A DNA stretch of 64,000 nt, from NCBI GenBank assembly GCA_009392005.1, contig VFHL01000005.1, positions 49,643 through 113,642 of the forward strand, given 5' to 3'. The position numbers were made by a program, and so were the translations under genes. The notes beneath the pieces are model-generated. The model did not search any database and was not told the origin of the DNA. It worked only from the letters and a program-made list of their open reading frames with translations. The first letter of the stretch is position 1. Each line of letters opens with the position of its first letter. Below, in pieces: positions 7,038 to 57,780 of this stretch. The stretch is from SAR202 cluster bacterium (lineage in GTDB: Bacteria; Chloroflexota; Dehalococcoidia; UBA6926; VFHL01).

Positions 7038-8246
7038 GTGGTTACGATTTATATCCAACGCCTTTCTCTCACATATTTTCGCAACTATCAAGAGCAGGAA
7101 GTAGATCTAGCAAGGGGCATCAATGTTCTCCATGGGGTAAATGCCCAGGGGAAAACCAACTTTCTAGAAGCCTGCTACTTGATTGGCACAACTCGCGCTT
7201 TTAGAACGAGATTTGATCGCGAGCTGATAGGCTGGGGGGCGGCTAAGGAGCCATTACCCTATGCGCGTGTTATTGCGAATACGCAACAAGCGTCTGGTGC
7301 AACCGAACTCGAGGTGGTAATTCAAGCTAATAGTACGCGGCCAAACTTACAAACGAATCATGATCACGAAAATGTGTTGTCACCACCAGGAATATATAAG
7401 GATTTCAGCTTCCAAAGAAGTTATCGGATAAATAAAACCCGTCGACGTACTGCGGATATGATAGGTGAACTGAGGATTGTTTTGTTCGCTCCGCAAGACG
7501 TTGAATTAGCAAAAGGGTCACCGACTCAGAGGCGTAGATACATTGACCTGTCGATTAGCCAGATCAACAAGCGATACCTCCAAACACTTCAAGAATATAA
7601 CCGAATAATTACTCAAAGAAACTCACTACTTCGCCGCATTCGAGACCAACAAGCAAACGTCGCCCAATTGGGATTTTGGAATAAAGAATTAGTTGAATTA
7701 GGATCAAGCGTTCTTTTTACTCGACTAGAAATGCTATCGGAGTTAAATGCCATCATCAAAAGTACTCATGCTAATTTAATTAATGAAGCTAAAACCATAT
7801 TCGTTGATTATGAGCCAACATTGGAAATACAGGATAAAAAAGTGGCTGCTTTAGAAGAATCATTTCAAAGAGCCCTTGAAGTAAATCAAAGTCGAGAGAT
7901 TGCAGCGGGGCAAACTTTGATCGGTCCACACCGAGATGATATCCGTTTTTTGCTTGATGGAATTGACATAGGCATTTATGGTTCGCGGGGTGAAAACCGA
8001 ACGGTTGCTGTAGCATTAAAGCTTGCTGAGGCGGAGTATATGCGAACCATATCGGGAGAAGCACCAGTGCTATTGCTTGATGATGTTTTATCAGAATTGG
8101 ACCTGAATCGCCAAGCACATCTTCTGCGAGCGATATCCGAATATGATCAAGCGATTCTTACTACAACGGATTTGAACCAAATTCCTAGTGACGTCATACA
8201 AGGAACATCTTCGTACCAAGTCACAAATGGCGTTATTCCAGATTAA
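7038..8246 (+). CDS. recF: DNA replication/repair protein RecF
   Basis: FRNY, GVNAQGKTN, GPHRDD, GSRGE and LLLDDVLSELD. Confidence 0.96.
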   Translation: MVTIYIQRLSLTYFRNYQEQEVDLARGINVLHGVNAQGKTNFLEACYLIGTTRAFRTRFDRELIGWGAAKEPLPYARVIANTQQASGATELEVVIQANSTRPNLQTNHDHENVLSPPGIYKDFSFQRSYRINKTRRRTADMIGELRIVLFAPQDVELAKGSPTQRRRYIDLSISQINKRYLQTLQEYNRIITQRNSLLRRIRDQQANVAQLGFWNKELVELGSSVLFTRLEMLSELNAIIKSTHANLINEAKTIFVDYEPTLEIQDKKVAALEESFQRALEVNQSREIAAGQTLIGPHRDDIRFLLDGIDIGIYGSRGENRTVAVALKLAEAEYMRTISGEAPVLLLDDVLSELDLNRQAHLLRAISEYDQAILTTTDLNQIPSDVIQGTSSYQVTNGVIPD

Positions 8247-8270: not shown

Positions 8271-8954
8271 TTAGATATTGTCTGTATTAAATCGATACCC
8301 CACGTTTCGTACCGTGTCAACAAATGTATGAGCAGGGTCCTCTAACTTCGCTCGGAGGCGACGAATGTGAACATCTACGGTTCTAGTGCCGCCGAAGTAA
8401 TCGTAACCCCAAACTCGATTCATTAGCACTTCACGGGTGAAGACTCTGCCAGGGTGTGACGCGAGGAGTTTCAAAACCTCATATTCTTTGAAAGTTAGCG
8501 TGACTTCACGTCCAGAGACCCATACTTCATAGCGGTTCAGATCAAGTAAAAGATCTCCTAATCGAATAGTTTCTTGGCCGATCTCTTTTTGCCGCGTCCA
8601 AAGAAGCTGATCAATTCGTACAAGGATTTCATCTGCTGTGAATGGGCGAACTACAAAATCATCAAAACCAAGTGTGAAATCAAAATCATGAAGATCGAAG
8701 TTACTAATAATCCCGAGAACAGGTATAAACGAATCGCGATGCGCTTGCGAAATGATGGTGGATAGCGACTCAACGGACATGATTCGTGGTGAAAGATCAA
8801 TTAGTATGACATCAGGTTTGGGAGAACTGAAGAAACCTTCAATATCTTGTTCACGCTCAATATATTTAGACGAATGGGAGCCGCCCTCGAGCTCTTCGCA
8901 GAGATCACGGAGGTCAATACTGTCAGAATGGCCAACAACCCCTATAAGCATCAT
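8271..8954 (-). CDS. Orphan OmpR-family response regulator, GlnR-like
   Basis: wHTH LTFKEYE...HPGRVFTRE...VWGYDYFGGTRTVDVHIRRLRAKL...TVRNVGYRF. Atypical receiver domain; no adjacent kinase. Confidence 0.85.
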   Translation of the reverse strand: MMLIGVVGHSDSIDLRDLCEELEGGSHSSKYIEREQDIEGFFSSPKPDVILIDLSPRIMSVESLSTIISQAHRDSFIPVLGIISNFDLHDFDFTLGFDDFVVRPFTADEILVRIDQLLWTRQKEIGQETIRLGDLLLDLNRYEVWVSGREVTLTFKEYEVLKLLASHPGRVFTREVLMNRVWGYDYFGGTRTVDVHIRRLRAKLEDPAHTFVDTVRNVGYRFNTDNI

Positions 8955-9133: not shown

Positions 9134-10000
9134 ATGAAAACGAACAAAAGATTACCCGAATGGTTCAAAGTGAAAGCCCCCGGAACAGAAAACTACCGAC
9201 ACATAAAGTCAATTATTAACGATGAATCTTTAAACACCGTTTGTGAGGAAGCAAGATGTCCAAATATTGGAGATTGTTGGGATCGTGGCACTGCCACTTT
9301 CATGATTCTTGGAGACGTTTGTACGCGTGCCTGCCGGTATTGCGCGGTGGTTTCTGGTAAGCGTGGTGGTGACCTTGATATCTATGAACCACTCAGGGTC
9401 GCTCAAGCTGTAAAGCGGATGGGAATTCAGCATGCTGTCGTTACGTCAGTTGACCGTGATGATTTGCCTGATGGGGGGGCAGCGGTTTTTGCACAGACGA
9501 TTCATACTATTCGCCGTATTGCCCCTGGAGTTCGGGTTGAGGTTCTTACCCCTGACTTTGGCGGGAATTGGGATGCCTTGAATTCGGTAATTAGTGCAAA
9601 ACCAGATATATTCAATCACAATATTGAGACCTCTGAAAGGATTTTTCGCGTAGTGCGACCAAAAGGAAATTACGCGTTATCATTAGAATTCCTTGCTCGT
9701 GTAAATGCCACGAATTGCCCTTCGAAATCTGGAATGATGGTTGGCCTTGGCGAGACAAAAGAAGAGATTATTGAAACCATGGATGACTTAAGGCGAGTGA
9801 AGTGCGACATCCTTACTATTGGCCAATATTTGAGGCCATCCGCCAAACATGTGCCGTTGGATCGGTACTATACGCCAGCGGAATTTATGGAATTAAAGGA
9901 GATTGCGTTAGGAAAAGGGTTTACTCATGTCGAGGCTGGACCACTTGTGCGCAGTTCATATCATGCCGAGGAACAGAGTATAGCGGCAGGTAGAAAATAG
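9134..10000 (+). CDS. lipA: Lipoyl synthase
   Basis: CEEARCPNIGDC, radical-SAM motif CTRACRYC, and RSSY. Confidence 0.97.
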   Translation: MKTNKRLPEWFKVKAPGTENYRHIKSIINDESLNTVCEEARCPNIGDCWDRGTATFMILGDVCTRACRYCAVVSGKRGGDLDIYEPLRVAQAVKRMGIQHAVVTSVDRDDLPDGGAAVFAQTIHTIRRIAPGVRVEVLTPDFGGNWDALNSVISAKPDIFNHNIETSERIFRVVRPKGNYALSLEFLARVNATNCPSKSGMMVGLGETKEEIIETMDDLRRVKCDILTIGQYLRPSAKHVPLDRYYTPAEFMELKEIALGKGFTHVEAGPLVRSSYHAEEQSIAAGRK

Positions 10001-47780: not shown

Positions 47781-48575
47781 TCAAATCTCTTTAATTTCCC
47801 GAATTCTCTGGACAAGGGTTGGTAAAACTTCACCAGTTGGCCCATTAATGGTGAGGTCACAGATTTCGCTGAGAGCGGACCCCTCCGTATTAATTTCCAA
47901 AATTTGAGCACCATTCTGTTTTGCTAAAGATGGAAACGCTGCTGCCGGATACACGACTGCAGACGTCCCCAATAGAAGCATACAGTCTGCCTTTAACGTC
48001 TCTTGCTGGCAGACATGCATGACGTCTGTTGGTATCGGTTCGCCAAACATTACGGTGTCTCCCTTTACGATGCCACTACATTCTGGGCAATGCGGTGGAA
48101 CATTTTCAAGATCCGCATCTATTTCGTTCTTTTCGAACCGCATGTTGCAGTCAATACATCGCAATAAGGTTCTATTTCCATGAATTTCGGCTACATTTGT
48201 ATGGCCCGCAGCTTTGTGCAAGTTGTCCACATTTTGAGTAATTATATGTTTCAAAATGCCCATCTTTTCCATTTCTACTAAAGCGTAGTGGCCTGGATTA
48301 GGAGTTGCTGTTTCAAATGCTGCTGCCTCAGGTCGCGGTTGTTCAGTTAGGCGATTTACCCACCATTGTTTTGGATCTTGTAGTAATTGTTCGTACCCTC
48401 TGTTATCGGGTTCTCCATACTTAGTCCATAGTCCTCCTTTGCCTCTAAAAGGAGAGATACCGCTCTCCACTGACATACCTGCGCCAACTAGAGCAACAAC
48501 ATATTGTGATTCACATATTAATTCTGCAGTTTGATCGATTATGTGTTCTATCTGTTCCGATAAAGAGAAATCCAT
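47781..48575 (-). CDS. Sir2-family NAD-dependent deacylase
   Basis: [21 protein letters not shown]..CxxC..CxxC and GTS.VVYPA. Confidence 0.93.
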
Positions 48576-48676: not shown

Positions 48677-48714
48677 TTTACGTGAATGTAACATGAATGT
48701 AGCACACGCGAAAC
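48677..48714 (+). promoter_or_regulatory. Putative GlnR-type operator upstream of amtB
   Basis: TTTAC-n6-GTAAC-n6-GTAGC-n6-GAAAC, with exact 11-bp phasing. Confidence 0.65.
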
Positions 48715-48797
48715 ATTCAACCTGTATGTTCAACTCTCCAATACGTTAAGTTGGAGCAGGTTCCTTTAGGAAAAATTTCGGAAGACAAGGAGAAATT

Positions 48798-50015
48798 ATG
48801 GACAGTGGACACACTGCTTGGGTACTAGTTGCATCTGCTTTGGTGTTTTTTATGACACCCGGGCTCGCGTTTTTCTATGGTGGGTTGGTGCGAGCAAAAA
48901 ATGTGGTTAATACGATCATGTACAGTTTTATGTCTATCGCCGTTGTGAGTATTGTCTGGGTTCTTTGGGGCTACAGTCTTGCATTTACCGATGGCGGCGG
49001 ATTGAACCAATGGGTTGGAGGCTTTAGCGCTTTTGGGTTGAGTGGTATCGGCGTTGATGCTGATGCCGGTGGATTTCCAGAATTGGCATTCATTTGTTTC
49101 CAACTAATGTTTGCGATTATTACTCCTGCACTCATAACAGGAGCATTCGTTGAGCGATTCAAATTTACTACCTATTTGGTTTTCCTTGTGTTTTGGATAA
49201 CGCTCGTTTACGCACCCGTTTGTCATTGGGTGTGGGGCGGAGGTTGGATCGCTGATCTTGGTGCACTTGATTTTGCCGGAGGTACGGTAATTCATGTGAA
49301 CGCTGGTATAGCTGCTGTTGCGGCGGCCATGCTCGTTGGGAAGCGAAGAAATCCAGGAGTCGAGCCACACAATGTTCCATATGTTGTTTTGGGGGCTGCG
49401 ATTCTCTGGTTCGGATGGTTTGGATTCAATGCAGGTTCTGAACTTGCAGCTGATGGTGTCGCAGCGAGTGCATTTCTTGTAACGAACACAGCGGCGGCGG
49501 CGGCGGCATTAACGTGGGGAATCATTTCACAAATACGGACAGGTAAAATGGGTGCTGTTGGTGTCGCAACGGGCGCAGTCGCTGGCCTGGTTGCCATTAC
49601 ACCTGCATCTGGGTTTGTTGGGATATATGGAGCACTGGCGATTGGCATTGGCGCTGGGGTCATATGCTTTATCTGCCTTGAATTAATGGAACGATCTGGC
49701 CTTGATGATGCTCTCGCCGTTTTTGCTGTTCACGGTGTAGGTGGCGCATGGGGTGCAGTAGCGACAGGCATATTCTGCACTGCAGCTATAGGTGGGACCG
49801 CAGGACTAATTGATGGAAACGCAGGGCAGGTTGGTATTCAGGTTGCTTCTGTCCTAGCGACTACTGCGTACTCTTTTGTTTTGACAATAGCGATACTGTT
49901 TGTTTTGGATAAAGTCCCGGGACTTGGCCTTCGAGTTTCTGAGCCTGATGAAGATGTTGGTTTAGATCTGGCTGCTCATGGTGAACGAGGAACAGTGGGT
50001 GATGGTGCTGATTAG
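48798..50015 (+). CDS. amtB: Ammonium transporter
   Basis: MTPGLAFFYGG, DFAGGTVIH, WFGWFGFN, AGLVAITP and twin His (VHGVGG). Confidence 0.97.
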   Translation: MDSGHTAWVLVASALVFFMTPGLAFFYGGLVRAKNVVNTIMYSFMSIAVVSIVWVLWGYSLAFTDGGGLNQWVGGFSAFGLSGIGVDADAGGFPELAFICFQLMFAIITPALITGAFVERFKFTTYLVFLVFWITLVYAPVCHWVWGGGWIADLGALDFAGGTVIHVNAGIAAVAAAMLVGKRRNPGVEPHNVPYVVLGAAILWFGWFGFNAGSELAADGVAASAFLVTNTAAAAAALTWGIISQIRTGKMGAVGVATGAVAGLVAITPASGFVGIYGALAIGIGAGVICFICLELMERSGLDDALAVFAVHGVGGAWGAVATGIFCTAAIGGTAGLIDGNAGQVGIQVASVLATTAYSFVLTIAILFVLDKVPGLGLRVSEPDEDVGLDLAAHGERGTVGDGAD

Positions 50016-50066
50016 CACGAACTGAAAAGTAGTAGCAGTAAAGATTCTAGAATGTATTGTAGTTAA

Positions 50067-50105
50067 ACCGGTTCCAGATACCTTTGGGGTTTTCCTGGAA
50101 CCGGT
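50067..50105. other. Perfect 11-bp inverted repeat between amtB and glnK
   Basis: ACCGGTTCCAG-N17-CTGGAACCGGT; no U-tract. Confidence 0.7.
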
Positions 50106-50152
50106 GGTTGAATCAGGATTTGTACAGAGGTTCTGCAAGGAGGTAAGGGGAG

Positions 50153-50506
50153 ATGCTTAAAGTTGAAGCTATAGTTCGTCCGGAGAGGGTAAACGAAGTT
50201 GTCGCAGCATTACAAGATGCAGGCTGCCGCGGTTTTCATTATGAGAACATAACTGGTCAAGGTATACAACAGGGTGTTGAAGTTGTTACTGGGCGGGGTG
50301 GTCGAGTAGCGTCTCGTGCTGCTATGCCCAAAACTTTAATCGTAACGGTTATTTCAGATGACATGAAAGAGGCAGTTATTGAAGCGATTGTTTCTTCCGC
50401 ACGCTCCGAAGGAGAAGGCGCGATCGGTGATGGAAAGATTTTTATGAGTGAGATTTCGGATGTCGTTAGAGTGCGAACTGGCGAAAGAGGACAGGACGCG
50501 CTTTAA
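50153..50506 (+). CDS. glnK: P-II nitrogen regulator with a divergent T-loop
   Basis: KVEAIVRP, G.IGDGKIF and RVRTGERG; adjacent to amtB. Confidence 0.9.
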   Translation: MLKVEAIVRPERVNEVVAALQDAGCRGFHYENITGQGIQQGVEVVTGRGGRVASRAAMPKTLIVTVISDDMKEAVIEAIVSSARSEGEGAIGDGKIFMSEISDVVRVRTGERGQDAL

Positions 50507-50598: not shown

Positions 50599-51600
50599 GT
50601 GGTATATAAGGCAGAATATTTGTGGTTGGATGGAACGACGCCATCGGCGCAGATAAGATCGAAAACTAAAGTCATAGCTGATGGAGAAGCGCCGCCTATT
50701 TGGGGTTTTGATGGGTCAAGTACACAACAAGCAGCCGGTGAGAGTTCTGACGTCGTTCTTAACCCGGTTCTTACAGTTCCTGATCCGATTCGTGGCGGGA
50801 ACAACGTTATTGTGATGAACGAAACATTGTTGCCTGATATGAGTCCCCACCCTACAAATACACGAGCTGCATGTGCAGCGGCAGCAGAAAAATTTAGTAG
50901 TTTTGATACGTGGTTCGGAATTGAACAGGAATACACGTTCTTTCAAGGTAGGGACCCGTTAGGTTGGCCAGAGGATGGCTTTCCGGCTCCTCAAGGAGAC
51001 TATTACTGTGCGGTCGGTTCTGAAAACATCTTTGGCCGGGATATTGTTGAGGAGCATATGGATGCCTGCATAGCTGCAGGTTTGACAATAGCTGGTATTA
51101 ACGCAGAGGTTATGCCAGGCCAATGGGAATATCAGATTGGTCCTGTGGGTGCGCCGCAAGTTGCCGATGAGCTGTGGATTGGTCGGTGGTTACTAGCAAG
51201 AATCGCAGAAAATTATGGGGTGACCGTTTCTTTAGACGCGAAACCTGTAAAAGGCGATTGGAATGGCGCTGGTTGCCACACCAACTTTTCTACCAAACAA
51301 ATGAGAGAAAATTACGCAGCATGTGAAGCGGCAGCGGAAGCACTTGGGGCAAATGCGGCGGAACACATAGCTAATTACGGAGCTGGGATTGAAGATCGGT
51401 TAACAGGTCAGCATGAGACCGCAAGTTATAAAGATTTTTCTTATGGGGTTTCTGATCGTGGGGCTTCGATAAGAATTCCATGGCAGGTTGCTAGAGATCA
51501 AAAAGGGTATATAGAGGACCGACGCCCAAATGCCAATATGGATCCGTACCTTGTAACTCGTTTAGTTATTGATACTGTCTGCGGAGCTGCCAGTAAATAA
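50599..51600 (+). CDS. glnII: Glutamine synthetase type II
   Basis: AEY.WLDG, RSKT, WGFDGSST, INAEVMPGQWEYQ, GDWNG.G.H.NFST, RLTG.HET and EDRRP; 333 aa. Confidence 0.95.
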   Translation: MVYKAEYLWLDGTTPSAQIRSKTKVIADGEAPPIWGFDGSSTQQAAGESSDVVLNPVLTVPDPIRGGNNVIVMNETLLPDMSPHPTNTRAACAAAAEKFSSFDTWFGIEQEYTFFQGRDPLGWPEDGFPAPQGDYYCAVGSENIFGRDIVEEHMDACIAAGLTIAGINAEVMPGQWEYQIGPVGAPQVADELWIGRWLLARIAENYGVTVSLDAKPVKGDWNGAGCHTNFSTKQMRENYAACEAAAEALGANAAEHIANYGAGIEDRLTGQHETASYKDFSYGVSDRGASIRIPWQVARDQKGYIEDRRPNANMDPYLVTRLVIDTVCGAASK

Positions 51601-51700: not shown

Positions 51701-51730
51701 TTGACACAAATTTCACAATCGCCATATACT
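51701..51730 (+). promoter_or_regulatory. Putative sigma70 promoter of glnA
   Basis: TTGACA-18 nt-TATACT. Confidence 0.5.
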
Positions 51731-51804: not shown

Positions 51805-53148
51805 ATGGCAGCCATTCAAGACCGTGAACAGGCTAAGGAATTCGTTTTACGAACAGTAAAAGAACGCGATGTGCAATTTATTCGCCTCTGGTTTACTGAC
51901 GTTAGCGGAACCTTAAAGGGTTTTGCAATCATGCGCGAGGAATTGGAGGAAGCGTTAAACGAGGGGTTTGGGTTTGACGGATCATCAATTGATGGTTATG
52001 CGCGGAGTGATGAAAGCGATATGATCGCCCTGCCAGATCCAACGACATTTTCTCTTCTGCCATGGCGACCTCAAGAGCGCGGAGTAGCTAGGCTATTTTG
52101 CGATATCCTCTTACCTGATGGAGCACCTTTTACTGGTGATCCACGATACGTTTTGAAAAAGAATCTTGAGAAGGCTCGTGAAAAAGGATTTACCTTTTAC
52201 GTTGGTCCAGAAATGGAATATTTTTATTTGAACAGCCCTGATGATCCGACTCCGGTCGACGCGGCAGGATATTTTGACCAGGATTCGCTTGATTTGACAA
52301 CTGACCTTCGCCGAGACACGGTCCTGAATTTAGAAGAGATGGGTATTGGCGTAGCTTATACGCATCATGAAGTTGCTCCTGGACAAGAAGAGATTGTTCT
52401 CCGGCATACTGATGCACTCACTATGGCAGATAATTGCATGACCTATAAAGTTGTTGTGAAGGAAGTAGCGCGTCAACATAACGTGTTCGCGACATTTATG
52501 CCGAAGCCATTAGCGAATCTCAATGGCAATGGTATGCACACGCATCAATCTCTTTTTCGTGGAGAAACTAATGTTTTTTACGATGCTGACGAGGATCTGA
52601 ATTTGTCTGCAATTGGGCGACATTATATAGCGGGCTTGTTGGAGCACGCATCAGGGATTACATCAATTACGAACCAATGGGTTAATTCATATAAAAGACT
52701 TGTTCCAGGGTATGAAGCTCCCATATATATCTCGTGGGCAAAAGTAAATCGATCAGATTTGATAAGGGTGCCACGTATCAAGCCATCAAGGCCGGATGAA
52801 ATGCGTATCGAGTATCGTGCTCCTGATGCAGCATGCAACCCCTATCTTGCATTTTCTGTGATGCTTGCAGCAGGATTGGACGGTGTTGAAAGGGAACTCG
52901 ATCCTCCTGAACCACTTACGCAAAATGCGTATGATATGAGTGATGAAACCCGGGTTGCGAAAGGTGTAAATACCCTTCCTGGGGATCTTATGCAGGCAGT
53001 TTTAGCTACTGAAGAAGATCCACTGGTACGTGACACATTAGGTGATAGTGTTTTTGAAAGTTTTTTGAAGAATAAGACGATCGAATGGGATACGTTTCGT
53101 CGACAGGTTACTGATTACGAATTGCAAAGGTACTTACCAGTTTTGTAA
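51805..53148 (+). CDS. glnA: Glutamine synthetase type I family
   Basis: FDGSS, HHEVAPGQ.E, ATFMPKP, NG.GMH.HQS, NSYKRLVPGYEAP and RIEYR.PD..CNPY. Confidence 0.9.
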   Translation: MAAIQDREQAKEFVLRTVKERDVQFIRLWFTDVSGTLKGFAIMREELEEALNEGFGFDGSSIDGYARSDESDMIALPDPTTFSLLPWRPQERGVARLFCDILLPDGAPFTGDPRYVLKKNLEKAREKGFTFYVGPEMEYFYLNSPDDPTPVDAAGYFDQDSLDLTTDLRRDTVLNLEEMGIGVAYTHHEVAPGQEEIVLRHTDALTMADNCMTYKVVVKEVARQHNVFATFMPKPLANLNGNGMHTHQSLFRGETNVFYDADEDLNLSAIGRHYIAGLLEHASGITSITNQWVNSYKRLVPGYEAPIYISWAKVNRSDLIRVPRIKPSRPDEMRIEYRAPDAACNPYLAFSVMLAAGLDGVERELDPPEPLTQNAYDMSDETRVAKGVNTLPGDLMQAVLATEEDPLVRDTLGDSVFESFLKNKTIEWDTFRRQVTDYELQRYLPVL

Positions 53149-53220
53149 TTTGTGTCTCATCATGAATGGATGGATAAAATTATTGTGAAAAAAGAAGATT
53201 CAATTAACAAGGAGTCGAGT

Positions 53221-56200
53221 GTGAAAAGGAATAGTTTCGAACATCTTTTCGCACCTAAAGGACTATATCGTTCGGCTTATGAACATGATTCGTGTGGCAC
53301 TGGTTTTGTTGCACGGATATCTGGTGAGCCTTCTCATGATATTGTTGCAATGGCTGTTGAAGCAGTGATTAACTTGACTCATAGAGGGGCTGTTTCATCG
53401 GACGCTAAAACTGGCGATGGAGCGGGGATTCAGACACAAATACCCCGAAAGCTTTTCACGCGTGAAGCGAAGAAAATGGGGATTGATTTAACTGATAAAG
53501 ACTTACTAGGTGTTGCGATGGTTTTCCTGCCTAACCAGGATGAAAAACTGCAACAACGGTGTGTTGAAATCATTGAAGAGTCAGTGGCAGATTATAATTT
53601 GAATCTAATTGGCTGGCGGGTTGTACCAGTGAATCGTTCCGTTCTTGGGGATCAAGCTCTGGAAACTTGTCCTGACATACGTCAAGCGTTAATAGTTCCA
53701 AATTCTGACTTAGATTCCGTGTCGTACGAACGCGCATTGTATTTCGCCCGGAAAAAGATTGAAAGAATTGCGATAGCAGAACAAATTGCGGATCTCTATA
53801 TACCTTCGATGTCCCAGTATTCTTTGGTCTATAAGGGGTTATTTGTTGCGCCTCAGCTTAAGGGGTTTTACGAAGATTTGACTGATCCAGATTTTGAATC
53901 ATCTTTAGCACTTTTCCACCAGCGATATTCAACGAATACCTTTCCCACTTGGGATCGTGCTCAACCGATGAGATATCTGGGCCATAATGGTGAGATAAAC
54001 ACTATTCAGGGTAATCGTAATTGGTTGCGTGCTCGCGAGCCTGAATTGAGCTCGCCGTTACTGAGCGAAAACATTGACATTTTGAAACCAGTGACGTTTG
54101 ACGAGACGAGTGATTCAGGCAGTTTGGACCATGCTCTAGAGTTACTTGTGATGTCGGGACGTGACGTCTTGCATTCGATGATGATGCTTATCCCAGAGCC
54201 ATGGGAAAATATGCCTAATATGGATCCTGCTTTGAAAGCTTTTTACGAATACCACGCGAGTTTAGTGGAACCATGGGATGGGCCGGCTGCTATCAGCTTT
54301 ACTGACGGGCGTATCGCTGGCGCTATTTTGGATCGAAATGGATTGCGGCCTGCTCGCTACAAAGTTACAAGGGATGGCCTTGTAATCATGGCCTCCGAAG
54401 TTGGGGTTGTTGATATTCCTGATAACGAAGTGATCGAGAAGGGCCAATTGGGACCGGGTCAAATGATTGCTGTTGATACAGCCAATCAACAGTTCCTAAG
54501 AAATGAAGATATTAAGAATTCTGCGGCGCACCGCCAACCATACGCTCAATGGGTTGGTCAGCACCAGGTAAAACTAGAAAGCCAAGCAGATCAACAGATC
54601 GATGGTGTTAAAGAAACCCAAGGTAGCGAGGCACTTTCTTTAGAACCTGTCCAAAGAAGGCAGATGTTTGGCTACACTGCTGAAGAGTTAAACATGGTTA
54701 TTAAACCGATGATTTTGGAAGGAAAAGATGCGACATTTTCAATGGGTGATGATACGCCCTTAGCAGCTTTATCTTCGCTAGAGCCAATAACGTATAGTTA
54801 CTTCAAACAAAAGTTTGCTCAGGTCACTAACCCCGCCATAGATAACTTGCGAGAAACTGTTGTAATGTCTAGCTACAATTTTTTGGGCGCGCGCCGTAGT
54901 TTTCTCGAGGAAAAGCCTGATGCGGCCAAACTTATACGTGTTGAGAGTCCGGTGCTCACAGATAATGAATTGGCGATGCTCCGTGATCTTTCTGACCCTG
55001 CATTTCAATCGATAACCATTCCCATTAATTTCGAGATTTCTGATGGAGCTCTTGGTTTGCAGAATGGGCTCAGGGATTTGTGTGAGACTGCATTAGAAGC
55101 GATTGATTCTGGAAAATCATTAATAATATTGAGTGATCGTGGAACGAACGCTACTCATGCTCCTATTCCGATGATGATCGCCGTTGGAAGATTACATCAT
55201 TTTCTTATTGATCATGGGAAAAGGATGAGGGCGAGCATTATTGCAGAAACAGCCGAACCACGTGATATACATCATTACGCCGCTCTTGTCGGGTATGGAG
55301 CCAACGCAATCAATCCGTACATGGCGTTTGAGATTGTAACGGAGCTGTTTGAAAAGGATGAAATTAAAGATTTTGAAACGCCTCAGCAAGCAATCTTGAA
55401 ATATAGAACCTCGGCATCAAAAGGCATATTAAAAATTATGTCGAAGATGGGTATTTCTACGGTAACAAGTTATAGCGGAGCACAGATTTTCGAGGCGATT
55501 GGATTGGATGAAGACATCATTGATCAGTGCTTCAGAGGTACACCATGCCAATTTGGTGGGATGGGGTTGAACCAATTTGCAGAGGATGTTTTGAAACGCC
55601 ATTCTAAAGCAATGGATGTACCTAAAACCGGTAAGAAACGACTTGAAGATATAGGTTTCATAAGATTTCGTCGAAAAGGCGAGTACCACGGGAACAATCC
55701 ACAAGGTGTTCGTGCTTTGCATGCAGCTGTTTTGAATGGCAATTATGATGATTACAAAGTGTATTCAGAAATGATTATTAACCGACCGTTGACCTCAATC
55801 CGTGATTTAATGGGTTTCAAGAGTGATCGGAAGCCTGTTTCTATTGATGAGGTTGAGTCTATAGAGTCGTTGCGTCGACATCTAAATACCGGTTCCATGT
55901 CTCTCGGGGCCCTCAGTCCGGAAGCTCACGAAACGATTGCGTTAGCGATGAATTCAATGGGCGCAGCGAGTGCTACGGGTGAAGGTGGCGAAGATCCGGT
56001 TAGATATCGGCCACGGTCTGATGGGCTTAATGGTAGCAGTAAGATCAAACAAGTTGCATCTGCGAGATTTGGTGTAACACCTGAATACCTTGCGATGTCA
56101 GAAGAGCTTGAGATTAAGATTGCCCAAGGTTCTAAACCTGGTGAGGGTGGGCAATTGCCTGGACATAAAGTTGTGACTCATATCGCACATATTCGTCATT

Positions 56201-57780
56201 CGCAACCAGGAATCACATTGATCTCACCACCTCCGCATCATGACATATATTCGATTGAAGATCTTGCACAACTGATTTATGACCTTAAGATCGCTAATCC
56301 ACGCGCATATGTGACCGTTAAACTTGTCTCTGAAGCTGGTGTTGGTACGATTGCTGCGGGAGTCGCAAAAGGATTTGCAGATAAGATTGTTATAAGCGGG
56401 CATGCCGGTGGCACTGGCGCTTCTCCGCTTTCCTCGATTAAGAACGCAGGGACTTCATGGGAGTTAGGTGTTGCTGAGACACAACAAGTGCTCGTTATGA
56501 ACGATCTTCGCGGGCGGGTTAGGTTACGAACAGATGGTGGATTTCAGATTGGTAGAGATGTTGTCGTTGCAGCAATGCTTGGCGCCGAAGAATATGGGTT
56601 TGGGACTAATGCGCTTATTGCAGCAGGTTGTGAGATGGCGCGGCAGTGTCATCTTGATACTTGTCCTGTTGGCGTTGCGACCCAGAGGGAAGATCTTCGC
56701 GGAAAATTTAATGGAACAGTTGAATCCATTGTTCATTACTTCACCTTTGTGGCTCAAGAAATTCGCGAAACTTTAGCAGACCTTGGGTACAAAAGCCTTG
56801 ACGATATCATTGGGCGTTCAAATTTATTGACTCCATCTACGAGAGATGACATCGCAGAAATTGCTCGTACTGTAGACGTTCGTCCCATTATTGCTTTGGC
56901 TGATCCGACTGGTTCAAGGCCCATCAAGAATAATCAAAAGAGGAATGATCGTGGAGAGGTGCCTCTAGACGACCGAATCTTGAAAGATATTCAGCCGACT
57001 TTGGATGACAAGAAGCAGTCAAAGTACGAATATAACATTCATAACACAGATAGGACTGTAGGTGGTCGGGTTGGTGGTGAACTATCAAGGAAGTACGGTT
57101 CTGATGGATTGCCCGAAGGTACTGTTGATTTACAGTTCATAGGAACTGCAGGTCAAAGTTTCGGGGCCTGGTGTGCTAACGGCATGCGATTGACTCTTGT
57201 TGGAGAGGCAAATGATTATGTCGGAAAGGGCCTTGGTGGTGGAGAAGTGATTCTGAAGCCTTCTCCTGACGCGAATTTCATTGCACATGAAAATTCCATT
57301 ATGGGTAATACTTGTTTATATGGAGCAACAGGAGGATACCTTTTTGCTGCCGGTCGTGCTGGAGAGAGATTCTGTGTGCGCGCGAGTGGAGTCCAAGCGG
57401 TGGTGGAGGGTGTTGGCGATCATGGATGCGAATATATGACGAGTGGTATTGCCGTAATTCTGGGTGAGACCGGTCGCAATTTTGGGGCTGGAATGTCTGG
57501 AGGAATGGCTTTTGTCTACGATCCAGAGAAACAATTTCCAAGTAGATATAATCCGGAAATTCTCGCTCTTGATCCTCTCGATGACCAAGAGGATATTGCG
57601 AAAGTAAAAGATTTGGTTGAACGCCACACTAACTATACTGGATCAATTCGTGGTAAAGAGATACTGGATAATTGGGACTCAGCTGTAAAGGATTTCTGGA
57701 AGGTTATCCCGTTTCAGATCAAGGATCAGGGTATGTCAATTTCTGACGTGTTGAAAAAGGTTGAAGGGGCTGTTACATAA
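53221..57780 (+). CDS. gltB: Glutamate synthase large subunit
   Basis: EHDSCG.G, HQRYSTNT, KQVASARFGV, QGSKPGEGGQL, C.MARQCHLDTCPVG and GXGXG domain. GTG start after AAGGAG. Confidence 0.97.
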   Translation: MKRNSFEHLFAPKGLYRSAYEHDSCGTGFVARISGEPSHDIVAMAVEAVINLTHRGAVSSDAKTGDGAGIQTQIPRKLFTREAKKMGIDLTDKDLLGVAMVFLPNQDEKLQQRCVEIIEESVADYNLNLIGWRVVPVNRSVLGDQALETCPDIRQALIVPNSDLDSVSYERALYFARKKIERIAIAEQIADLYIPSMSQYSLVYKGLFVAPQLKGFYEDLTDPDFESSLALFHQRYSTNTFPTWDRAQPMRYLGHNGEINTIQGNRNWLRAREPELSSPLLSENIDILKPVTFDETSDSGSLDHALELLVMSGRDVLHSMMMLIPEPWENMPNMDPALKAFYEYHASLVEPWDGPAAISFTDGRIAGAILDRNGLRPARYKVTRDGLVIMASEVGVVDIPDNEVIEKGQLGPGQMIAVDTANQQFLRNEDIKNSAAHRQPYAQWVGQHQVKLESQADQQIDGVKETQGSEALSLEPVQRRQMFGYTAEELNMVIKPMILEGKDATFSMGDDTPLAALSSLEPITYSYFKQKFAQVTNPAIDNLRETVVMSSYNFLGARRSFLEEKPDAAKLIRVESPVLTDNELAMLRDLSDPAFQSITIPINFEISDGALGLQNGLRDLCETALEAIDSGKSLIILSDRGTNATHAPIPMMIAVGRLHHFLIDHGKRMRASIIAETAEPRDIHHYAALVGYGANAINPYMAFEIVTELFEKDEIKDFETPQQAILKYRTSASKGILKIMSKMGISTVTSYSGAQIFEAIGLDEDIIDQCFRGTPCQFGGMGLNQFAEDVLKRHSKAMDVPKTGKKRLEDIGFIRFRRKGEYHGNNPQGVRALHAAVLNGNYDDYKVYSEMIINRPLTSIRDLMGFKSDRKPVSIDEVESIESLRRHLNTGSMSLGALSPEAHETIALAMNSMGAASATGEGGEDPVRYRPRSDGLNGSSKIKQVASARFGVTPEYLAMSEELEIKIAQGSKPGEGGQLPGHKVVTHIAHIRHSQPGITLISPPPHHDIYSIEDLAQLIYDLKIANPRAYVTVKLVSEAGVGTIAAGVAKGFADKIVISGHAGGTGASPLSSIKNAGTSWELGVAETQQVLVMNDLRGRVRLRTDGGFQIGRDVVVAAMLGAEEYGFGTNALIAAGCEMARQCHLDTCPVGVATQREDLRGKFNGTVESIVHYFTFVAQEIRETLADLGYKSLDDIIGRSNLLTPSTRDDIAEIARTVDVRPIIALADPTGSRPIKNNQKRNDRGEVPLDDRILKDIQPTLDDKKQSKYEYNIHNTDRTVGGRVGGELSRKYGSDGLPEGTVDLQFIGTAGQSFGAWCANGMRLTLVGEANDYVGKGLGGGEVILKPSPDANFIAHENSIMGNTCLYGATGGYLFAAGRAGERFCVRASGVQAVVEGVGDHGCEYMTSGIAVILGETGRNFGAGMSGGMAFVYDPEKQFPSRYNPEILALDPLDDQEDIAKVKDLVERHTNYTGSIRGKEILDNWDSAVKDFWKVIPFQIKDQGMSISDVLKKVEGAVT

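Follow-up and report, generated by a model that had tools for sequence, protein, structure and literature searches.

The amtB promoter array and its conservation

The window, i.e. the whole stretch of 64,000 nucleotides analysed here, belongs to contig VFHL01000005.1 of a SAR202 cluster bacterium, and the element in question is an array of four short direct repeats at positions 48677-48714, upstream of the ammonium transporter gene amtB. On the plus strand the array reads TTTAC gtgaat GTAAC atgaat GTAGC acacgc GAAAC, with the pentamers 6 nt apart and an exact period of 11 bp, and it ends 83 nt before the start codon of amtB (ATG at 48798). A first-pass annotation, made from the letters alone, had already pointed out four pentamers at exact 11-bp spacing about 83 bp before amtB, and a reading of the window letters confirmed this. 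It had interpreted them as a GlnR-type operator at the head of an amtB-glnK-glnII-glnA-gltB cluster. The identities of the five genes were confirmed by Pfam and NCBIfam scans, and the operator at amtB was borne out in silico by conservation, chance scans, the affinities of the regulator and gene linkage. Judged from sequence, the array appears to be a conserved GlnR-type operator served by an orphan regulator of the GlnR family; this predicted pair in marine Dehalococcoidia would extend a known system to a second phylum.

The operator of actinobacterial GlnR consists of GTAAC-like pentamers with 6-nt spacers at four sites, a1-b1-a2-b2 (PMC10235972). We use these site names for the pentamers and give their positions relative to the predicted transcription start. 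The scores were obtained with a pentamer matrix built from the sites of six relatives, from which the window was left out to avoid circularity.

48677-48681, plus strand: pentamer 1, TTTAC; position a1, about -60 to -56; score 0.94, the weakest unit
48688-48692, plus strand: pentamer 2, GTAAC; position b1, about -49 to -45; consensus match, score 8.72
48699-48703, plus strand: pentamer 3, GTAGC; position a2, about -38 to -34, the site of a would-be -35 element; score 3.42
48710-48714, plus strand: pentamer 4, GAAAC; position b2, about -27 to -23, between the -35 and -10 positions; score 4.73
48725-48730, plus strand: predicted -10 element TATGTT, an nAnnnT hexamer 11 nt after pentamer 4; the start is predicted at about 48736-48738
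48798-50015, plus strand: amtB, ammonium transporter (Pfam PF00909, E 2.8e-124; TIGR00836, 455 bits), with the ribosome-binding site AAGGAG at 48787-48792
50153-50506, plus strand: glnK, P-II signal protein (Pfam PF00543)
50599-51600, plus strand: glnII, glutamine synthetase type II (NCBIfam NF041605, GlnII equivalog, 598.6 bits; cut-off 500)
51805-53148, plus strand: glnA, type I glutamine synthetase (family scans)
53152-57780, plus strand: gltB (family scans)

Conservation at orthologous amtB genes had been set beforehand as a test that could refute the operator. We found amtB in all 41 related genomes and fetched 30 of the loci. In the neighbouring family f2, which has three genera, the array was present at all 27 fetched loci in the form GTAAC-n6-GTAAC-n6-GTAAC-n6-GTCAC/T. 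No more than 2 of its 20 positions are mismatched, and its distance to the ATG is 76-99 nt. The sequence around these arrays has diverged, being rich in AT in genus g4 and in GC in g2. The first position is GTAAC or TTAAC in the relatives, the second is GTAAC in 26 of the 27 f2 loci, and GAAAC as the fourth unit also occurs in L052, L075, L102, L038 and L230 as well as in actinobacterial amtB promoters. The locus from family f3 carries GTTAC-GTAAC-GAAAC-GAAAT farther upstream, and one amtB locus at the class level has a weaker version of the array. Across the class, arrays with a score of at least 13.5 precede amtB in G030, G034, G039 and G040, all of which have an orthologue of the candidate regulator described below, and no array precedes amtB in G032, G033 and G035 (scores of at most -3.3), none of which has the orthologue; this co-occurrence comes from small numbers of related genomes, with G037 left out on account of contig ends. 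The stretch was also found in marine and seawater metagenomes of several studies. In contigs of two other marine studies the array is unchanged, yet there are differences at 48414, 48551 and 48745, which is a weak hint of constraint.

The array also keeps a fixed distance to a -10-like hexamer. An nAnnnT hexamer begins at +11 after pentamer 4 in 14 of 16 lineage representatives (35 of 37 loci), both exceptions having it at +12, and at all other offsets between 1 and 40 it occurs in at most 3 of the 16. Examples of the +11 hexamer are TATGTT, TACACT, TAGACT, CAGCAT and TATTCT. No -35-like hexamer was detected at the amtB array, and a consensus scan finds no sigma-70 promoter there. With the -10 element set at -12 to -7, the pentamers fall at approximately -60, -49, -38 and -27. 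In the GlnR activation complex solved on an amtB promoter, the b2 site is found downstream from the -35 element, with the b2 protomer contacting the beta flap and sigma region 4 (PMC10235972). As a control we used the amtB loci of five actinobacteria (6 loci), where the best-scoring array lies upstream of amtB in 5 of 6 cases. Three of these loci show (G/T)T(A/C)AC-GAAAC-(degenerate)-GAAAC followed by nAnnnT at +11, namely GAGTCT, CACCGT and CAAACT. The Dehalococcoidia matrix scores the actinobacterial amtB arrays low (-3.4 to 18.1), a2 being degenerate there, and was used for layout only. By these comparisons the layout of array and promoter appears to be the same in both phyla.

The candidate regulator and its gene neighbourhood

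8271-8954, minus strand: P0001, GlnR-like regulator of the OmpR/PhoB family, 227 amino acids (Pfam, PDB sequence search, tree)

The first-pass annotation had paired the array with a regulator at 8271-8954. This gene is real and GlnR-like by sequence, tree and DNA-contact residues; what had to be specified is its strand, which is minus. Because its neighbours are a RecF/SMC-like ATPase (7038-8246) and a lipoyl synthase (9134-10000), with no adjacent histidine kinase, P0001 is an orphan regulator. The genome holds only two full OmpR/PhoB-family regulators, P0001 and the protein at locus L032.

In a search of PDB sequences with P0001, GlnR takes ranks 1-3 (M. tuberculosis 8hih, E 4.7e-36; S. erythraea 8hig and 8hml), followed by RegX3 (4.7e-29) and MtrA (2.2e-27), which puts GlnR seven orders ahead of RegX3. 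Entry 8HIH shows GlnR in its transcription activation complex, and 8HML shows the DNA-binding domain of GlnR on DNA (PMC10235972). On the NCBIfam MtrA model P0001 reaches 126.9 bits, with a cut-off of 300. The residues of S. erythraea GlnR that read GTAAC are R186, V190, R193 and R194 (PMC10235972). In our alignment P0001 keeps these base contacts as R191, V195, R198 and R199; it also keeps all of the listed phosphate contacts, namely T154, K156, R174, W182, T192, H196, R201, T214, R216, N217 and Y220. E. coli PhoB has the same four base-contacting residues, which are hence not unique to GlnR, so that the match is necessary and not sufficient for GlnR identity.

Pfam sees only one domain in P0001, the winged-helix DNA-binding domain (PF00486, E 9e-29, residues 148-222), and its Response_reg model gives no match at E <= 0.001. 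An AlphaFold2 (AF2) model from a 33-row alignment, with a mean predicted local distance difference test score of 91.2, shows a receiver-like domain at residues 1-125 in addition to the winged-helix domain; the former is predicted with high confidence as a domain of alternating strands and helices. The receiver appears to be degenerate. D53 is the same in each of 9 relatives from the order and class; over the full 33 rows, actinobacterial GlnR among them, it is no longer invariant. A reading of the sequence against the model shows that the N-terminal acidic pair is absent (GHSDS) and that the usual Lys-Pro is Arg-Pro. The winged-helix domain superposes on the DNA-binding domain of S. erythraea GlnR with 1.5 A over 97-98 columns at 52-53% identity. 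Foldseek ranks M. tuberculosis GlnR first, but the whole OmpR family scores alike and we rejected the fold search as a discriminator for GlnR.

The regulator and the arrays are linked in the relatives. Of 29 genomes belonging to the same order, 28 have an orthologue of P0001, with E values of 1e-57 to 1e-63 (next paralogue about 1e-29), and the one genome without it is 62% complete. The orthologue adjoins amt genes in G002, G036 and G040 and two glutamine synthetase genes in most of family f2. The matrix was run over 80 regulator-centred loci, 643 kb in all, that were taken from named genomes, and gave 10 matches with a score of at least 15. The six that score at least 21 are all from Chloroflexota metagenome-assembled genomes (MAGs) and lie beside the regulator, directly upstream of amt genes (L075, L079, L098) or glutamine synthetase genes (L069, L100, L102). 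Three further arrays, with scores of 23.9, 30.9 and 30.9, are found in genomes G029 and G002 (loci L038 and L052), and a two-unit box, GTAAC-n6-GTAAC, is conserved in genera g2 and g4 in the gap that separates the regulator from the first glutamine synthetase gene.

Several other observations were made at these loci. Loci L035-L062 of family f2 are syntenic, with the regulator followed by a glutamine synthetase of about 500 amino acids and a type I glnA, and the two-unit box lies after the regulator stop codon. In genus g2 a conserved CATTCT hexamer stands 22 nt after this box, by eye in helical phase with the +11 hexamer of amtB. Locus L052 (G002, contig C127, approximately 2211-2600) has a second regulator copy after the full-length gene. 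This copy comprises the DNA-binding domain only, matching residues 129-224 at 58% identity inside an open frame of 127 amino acids, and a perfect four-unit array of its own (30.9) stands before it. It might be an autoregulated paralogue or else a competitor in truncated form. Other four-unit matches are located in L096 (3274-3311, 16.4), L126 (6988-7025, minus strand, 17.5) and L139 (5577-5614, 17.3), which represent one MAG labelled Dehalococcoides mccartyi and two actinobacteria. Among the members read for 5 clusters, the orthologues go under 'response regulator', 'winged helix-turn-helix domain-containing protein' or 'PhoP' in public records, and none is called GlnR; for the L096 and L058 clusters JGI/IMG gives 'alkaline phosphatase synthesis response regulator PhoP' and the NCBI names are generic. 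Such names are probably annotation errors for a nitrogen regulator.

A search of named genomes with the orthologue alignment returned Dehalococcoidia and other Chloroflexota MAGs first, at 43-53% identity, in agreement with the earlier supposition of a probable Chloroflexota genome. Actinomycetota come next, e.g. Cryobacterium, Kribbella, Glycomyces and Micromonospora. Five actinobacterial genomes each have a best match to P0001 (1e-39 to 1e-42) that is 8-10 orders ahead of the next one, and the best match of Micromonospora in turn hits M. tuberculosis GlnR at 8.8e-89, together with entries named GlnR receiver domain. We then computed an unrooted maximum-likelihood tree of 69 proteins. It separates a GlnR side (26 Chloroflexota, 7 actinobacterial best matches, 1 Armatimonadota and 1 row titled Massilia) from 34 paralogues of the same genomes with an ultrafast bootstrap of 100 and a Shimodaira-Hasegawa-like approximate likelihood ratio (SH-aLRT) of 100; the groups had been set by search rank, and it is the branch support alone, not the grouping, that is independent. 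A true MtrA clade falls on the paralogue side (NCBIfam MtrA 382 bits, cut-off 300). On these comparisons P0001 is the predicted Chloroflexota orthologue of actinobacterial GlnR, closer to it than to other OmpR subfamilies. Two sequences of other label, L086 (a record titled Massilia sp.) and L083 (an Armatimonadota MAG), are Chloroflexota-type GlnR-like genes nested among Chloroflexota, which for the Massilia record suggests assembly contamination or a recent transfer.

Within the Chloroflexota sequences, whose branching is an unresolved comb, the actinobacterial GlnRs appear as a single clade on a long branch, and because of this nesting the module may be ancestral to both phyla, or may have been passed from a Chloroflexota-like donor to early actinobacteria. 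Tentatively, and with somewhat less than even confidence, we consider the module of GlnR, GTAAC array and '-35-less' promoter to be old and common to Chloroflexota and Actinomycetota, with stray Armatimonadota copies, and not an actinobacterial invention. As part of that reading it would have shrunk to a single amtB promoter and an unlinked regulator in streamlined marine Dehalococcoidia.

The array could also be a real operator that is bound mainly or additionally by the other full family member of the genome, which might repress amtB or compete with P0001. We regard this as unlikely. The L032 protein (contig C6) is a response regulator of the canonical type whose gene stands next to that of a histidine kinase, and direct repeats with an 11-bp period would fit any OmpR/PhoB-family protein. 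Among solved structures the L032 protein matches MtrA best (7.8e-56), and none of its 20 PDB matches at E <= 1e-30 is GlnR. In actinobacteria MtrA is reported to act on the GlnR nitrogen regulon (PMC13718301) and PhoP to compete at the glnA and amtB promoters (PMC3561978). The recognition helix of the L032 protein, RTVDVHVSNLRRKL, however, has S and N in place of the base-contacting R193 and R194 of GlnR, and in the tree the protein groups with the paralogues. Its gene is unlinked to nitrogen genes, the neighbours being the kinase and a repeat protein, and it is the P0001 orthologue, not L032, that repeatedly adjoins array-bearing amt and glutamine synthetase genes.

Mode of control and extent of the regulon

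Since the layout is that of the solved GlnR activation complex, we propose activation. It is probable in our view that amtB has an activator-dependent promoter whose operator is the array, bound by four copies of P0001, which switch amtB on. The four copies would bind head-to-tail on the four pentamers, one per helical turn. The array would take the place of the -35 element, with pentamer 3 covering about -38 to -34 and pentamer 4 falling between -35 and -10, and the bound regulators would recruit RNA polymerase at the -10 element TATGTT, turning on amtB and, along with it, probably glnK. The signal would be nitrogen scarcity. That P0001 binds the array, that it activates rather than represses and that it responds to nitrogen limitation is what we infer from all of the above.

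A protein at this position could also act by promoter occlusion. Bound to the array, which extends over the -35 region and the spacer, a GlnR-like protein could block the polymerase, and actinobacterial GlnR represses some genes, e.g. ald (PMC10704036). Repression of amtB in this way is nonetheless improbable, slightly more so than binding by the L032 protein. The combination of no -35-like hexamer with weak -10 elements (CAGCAT, TACACT, TATGTT) is characteristic of a promoter that needs an activator, the activation complex solved on an amtB promoter has the same geometry, and it is the box-less glnA that carries a near-consensus promoter:

51701-51730, plus strand: glnA promoter TTGACA-18-TATACT, which matches 11 of 12 consensus positions

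The first-pass annotation had also listed a weaker TTGAC-n6-TTCAC at 51701-51716 that overlaps the -35 element of glnA. The sequence is present and coincides with the -35, but as a GlnR box it scores only 3.0. It is not supported as a box, and we read it as the -35 of the near-consensus promoter. The glnA promoter is most simply an activator-independent promoter of the sigma-70 type, and on these two counts glnA-gltB look independently and strongly promoted.

We scanned both strands of the 1.6-Mb genome with the matrix. The four-unit array of the window scores 17.8 and takes rank 2. Matches of this score or higher occurred 0.2 times on average in 20 dinucleotide-Markov genomes (one each in 4 of the 20), and among the 10 four-unit matches with a score of at least 11 in the real genome the window array is the only intergenic one, the others all lying within coding sequence. 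Because of its rank, the 0.2 matches expected per random genome and its intergenic position, the array is not due to chance. Five matches of lower order lie near gene starts, four of them intergenic and one flagged as coding in a crude gene map. The genes behind them (cyclophilin, AIR-synthase-like, epimerase, DRTGG/CobQ-like and ribosomal protein S3) are unrelated, and we therefore took these matches as chance. That the pentamers themselves are a chance periodicity, or what is left of an 11-bp tandem duplication, and do not regulate anything is highly improbable: units 1-2 and 2-3 have TGAATGTA in common, so that part of the array could be a local duplication, and pentamer 1 is weak, but this is contradicted by the constant position of the array at all 27 f2 loci, whose flanks have diverged, as well as by its rarity, its recurrence before amt and glutamine synthetase genes in other Chloroflexota, its fixed spacing to the -10-like hexamer and, weakly, its unchanged state in the marine contigs that differ nearby.

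The detectable regulon in this genome is a single promoter, that of amtB, and the wider regulon is a property of the lineage. The spacer between glnK and glnII has a best box score of at most 4.3, neither glnK nor glnII has a box in its upstream spacer, and the upstream region of the regulator gene contains no box that would indicate autoregulation (best score 1.3). The GlnR nitrogen regulon proposed in the first-pass annotation thus holds for the lineage and, in this genome, for the amtB promoter, and does not extend to the other nitrogen genes here, which have no box. The genome scan that it had suggested likewise returned the array at rank 2 and at amtB, and no enrichment at other nitrogen genes.

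Several points weigh against the proposed activation of amtB by P0001, in addition to those already made on the contact residues, the fold search and the tree. The window array is the most degenerate of its group, with 4 mismatches in 20 positions against GTAAC x4 compared to 1-2 in the relatives, and pentamer 1 is nearly uninformative at 0.94 bits. The P0001 gene is 40 kb away from the cluster and unlinked to it in this genome. The matrix scan detected no box at any nitrogen gene of the genome besides amtB, glnA has its own near-consensus promoter, and two-unit sites are not enriched (5 found versus 5.65 expected). Among the relatives, G038 combines an array-like site (14.9) with no more than a truncated regulator match, and in G036 the orthologue is adjacent yet amtB has just a two-unit box. 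Finally, the RNA-library contigs described below gave no start site for amtB, so that the -10 element and the direction of control are read from geometry.

One contig of a metatranscriptomic RNA library covers 49986-50252, i.e. the amtB stop codon, the spacer and the start of glnK. Exact amtB and glnK contigs occur in one such library and only for those genes, where DNA carry-over is possible, and contigs, of which all four public runs consist, cannot show start, strand or a single transcript. Possibly glnK is co-transcribed with amtB. The spacer between the two genes (50016-50152) contains a long perfect hairpin (ACCGGTTCCAG ... CTGGAACCGGT) that is not followed by a T-run, and in other marine populations it has a 7-nt insertion at 50047 or 50052. 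The hairpin may act in attenuation or processing, or it may belong to a repeat element.

On the other side of the array a gene for a SIR2-family deacetylase (47781-48575, minus strand) is divergent from amtB, with a common spacer of 222 bp. Acetylation control of glutamine synthetase and of the binding of GlnR to DNA has been described in actinomycetes (PMC10704036). We dropped the deacetylase as a part of the system: the divergent gene is crotonase-like in the relatives of genera g2 and g4 (read from sequence, without a family scan), and the two g5 loci have no interpretable open reading frame at the position divergent from amtB.

Comparison with known systems

GlnR is treated as the nitrogen master regulator of actinomycetes (PMC10704036; PMC10235972). 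In the literature searched, which excluded subscription journals and regulon databases, GlnR appears together with Chloroflexi, Chloroflexota or Dehalococcoides in incidental co-mentions only, and we found no description of nitrogen control in Chloroflexota. The same regulator family, DNA word, four-site layout and -10 spacing recur across Chloroflexota, in Dehalococcoidia as well as in MAGs labelled Tepidiformales, Anaerolineaceae and Chloroflexia. This amounts to the extension of a known system and not to a new mechanism. For a group that is difficult to culture and has organohalide-respiring and abundant marine lineages among its members, it provides a testable pair of regulator and operator, together with a second phylum in which to examine the unusual four-protomer activation mode seen by cryo-electron microscopy. 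For metagenomes it gives a signature of nitrogen-responsive genes (GTAAC-n6 repeated, then 10 nt, then nAnnnT).

The resemblance to GlnR and TnrA of Bacillus and other Firmicutes is limited to the name and the nitrogen theme, as those proteins, of the unrelated MerR family, have palindromic operators and are under the control of feedback-inhibited glutamine synthetase (PMC9249791). MtrA and PhoP of actinobacteria are of the same family as P0001 and have direct-repeat operators of about 11 bp that overlap with nitrogen promoters. Unlike P0001 they are canonical two-component regulators with a partner kinase, and true MtrA falls among the tree paralogues. The pho box of E. coli is a different word from the GTAAC array. 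PhoB, the textbook OmpR-family activator of promoters that lack a -35 element, is similar in that tandem head-to-tail winged-helix domains sit on repeats that replace the -35 element and contact sigma region 4 (PMC10235972). In contrast to the prediction for the array, PhoB needs phosphorylation and places two protomers per box, upstream of and at the -35; the array is expected to take four protomers, with one site downstream of the -35.

The closest system is actinobacterial GlnR as known from Streptomyces, Mycobacterium, Saccharopolyspora and Amycolatopsis. Both have GTAAC-like pentamers with 6-nt spacers at four sites, an amtB-glnK target and the last site between -35 and -10. Both regulators are orphans, and the receiver of P0001 looks atypical as well; they share the DNA-contact residues, GlnR is the closest solved relative of P0001, and the two stand on the same side of the split with 100/100 support. 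The differences concern the phylum (Chloroflexota, class Dehalococcoidia by the nearest named relatives), the identity of only about 33-39% and the word, which in the relatives is GTAAC x3 with GTCAC as the fourth unit and not an alternation of gTnAc and GaAAC. Moreover, this genome has one boxed promoter and an apparently independent glnA, and in many Chloroflexota, unlike in actinobacteria, the regulator gene adjoins its amt and glutamine synthetase targets.

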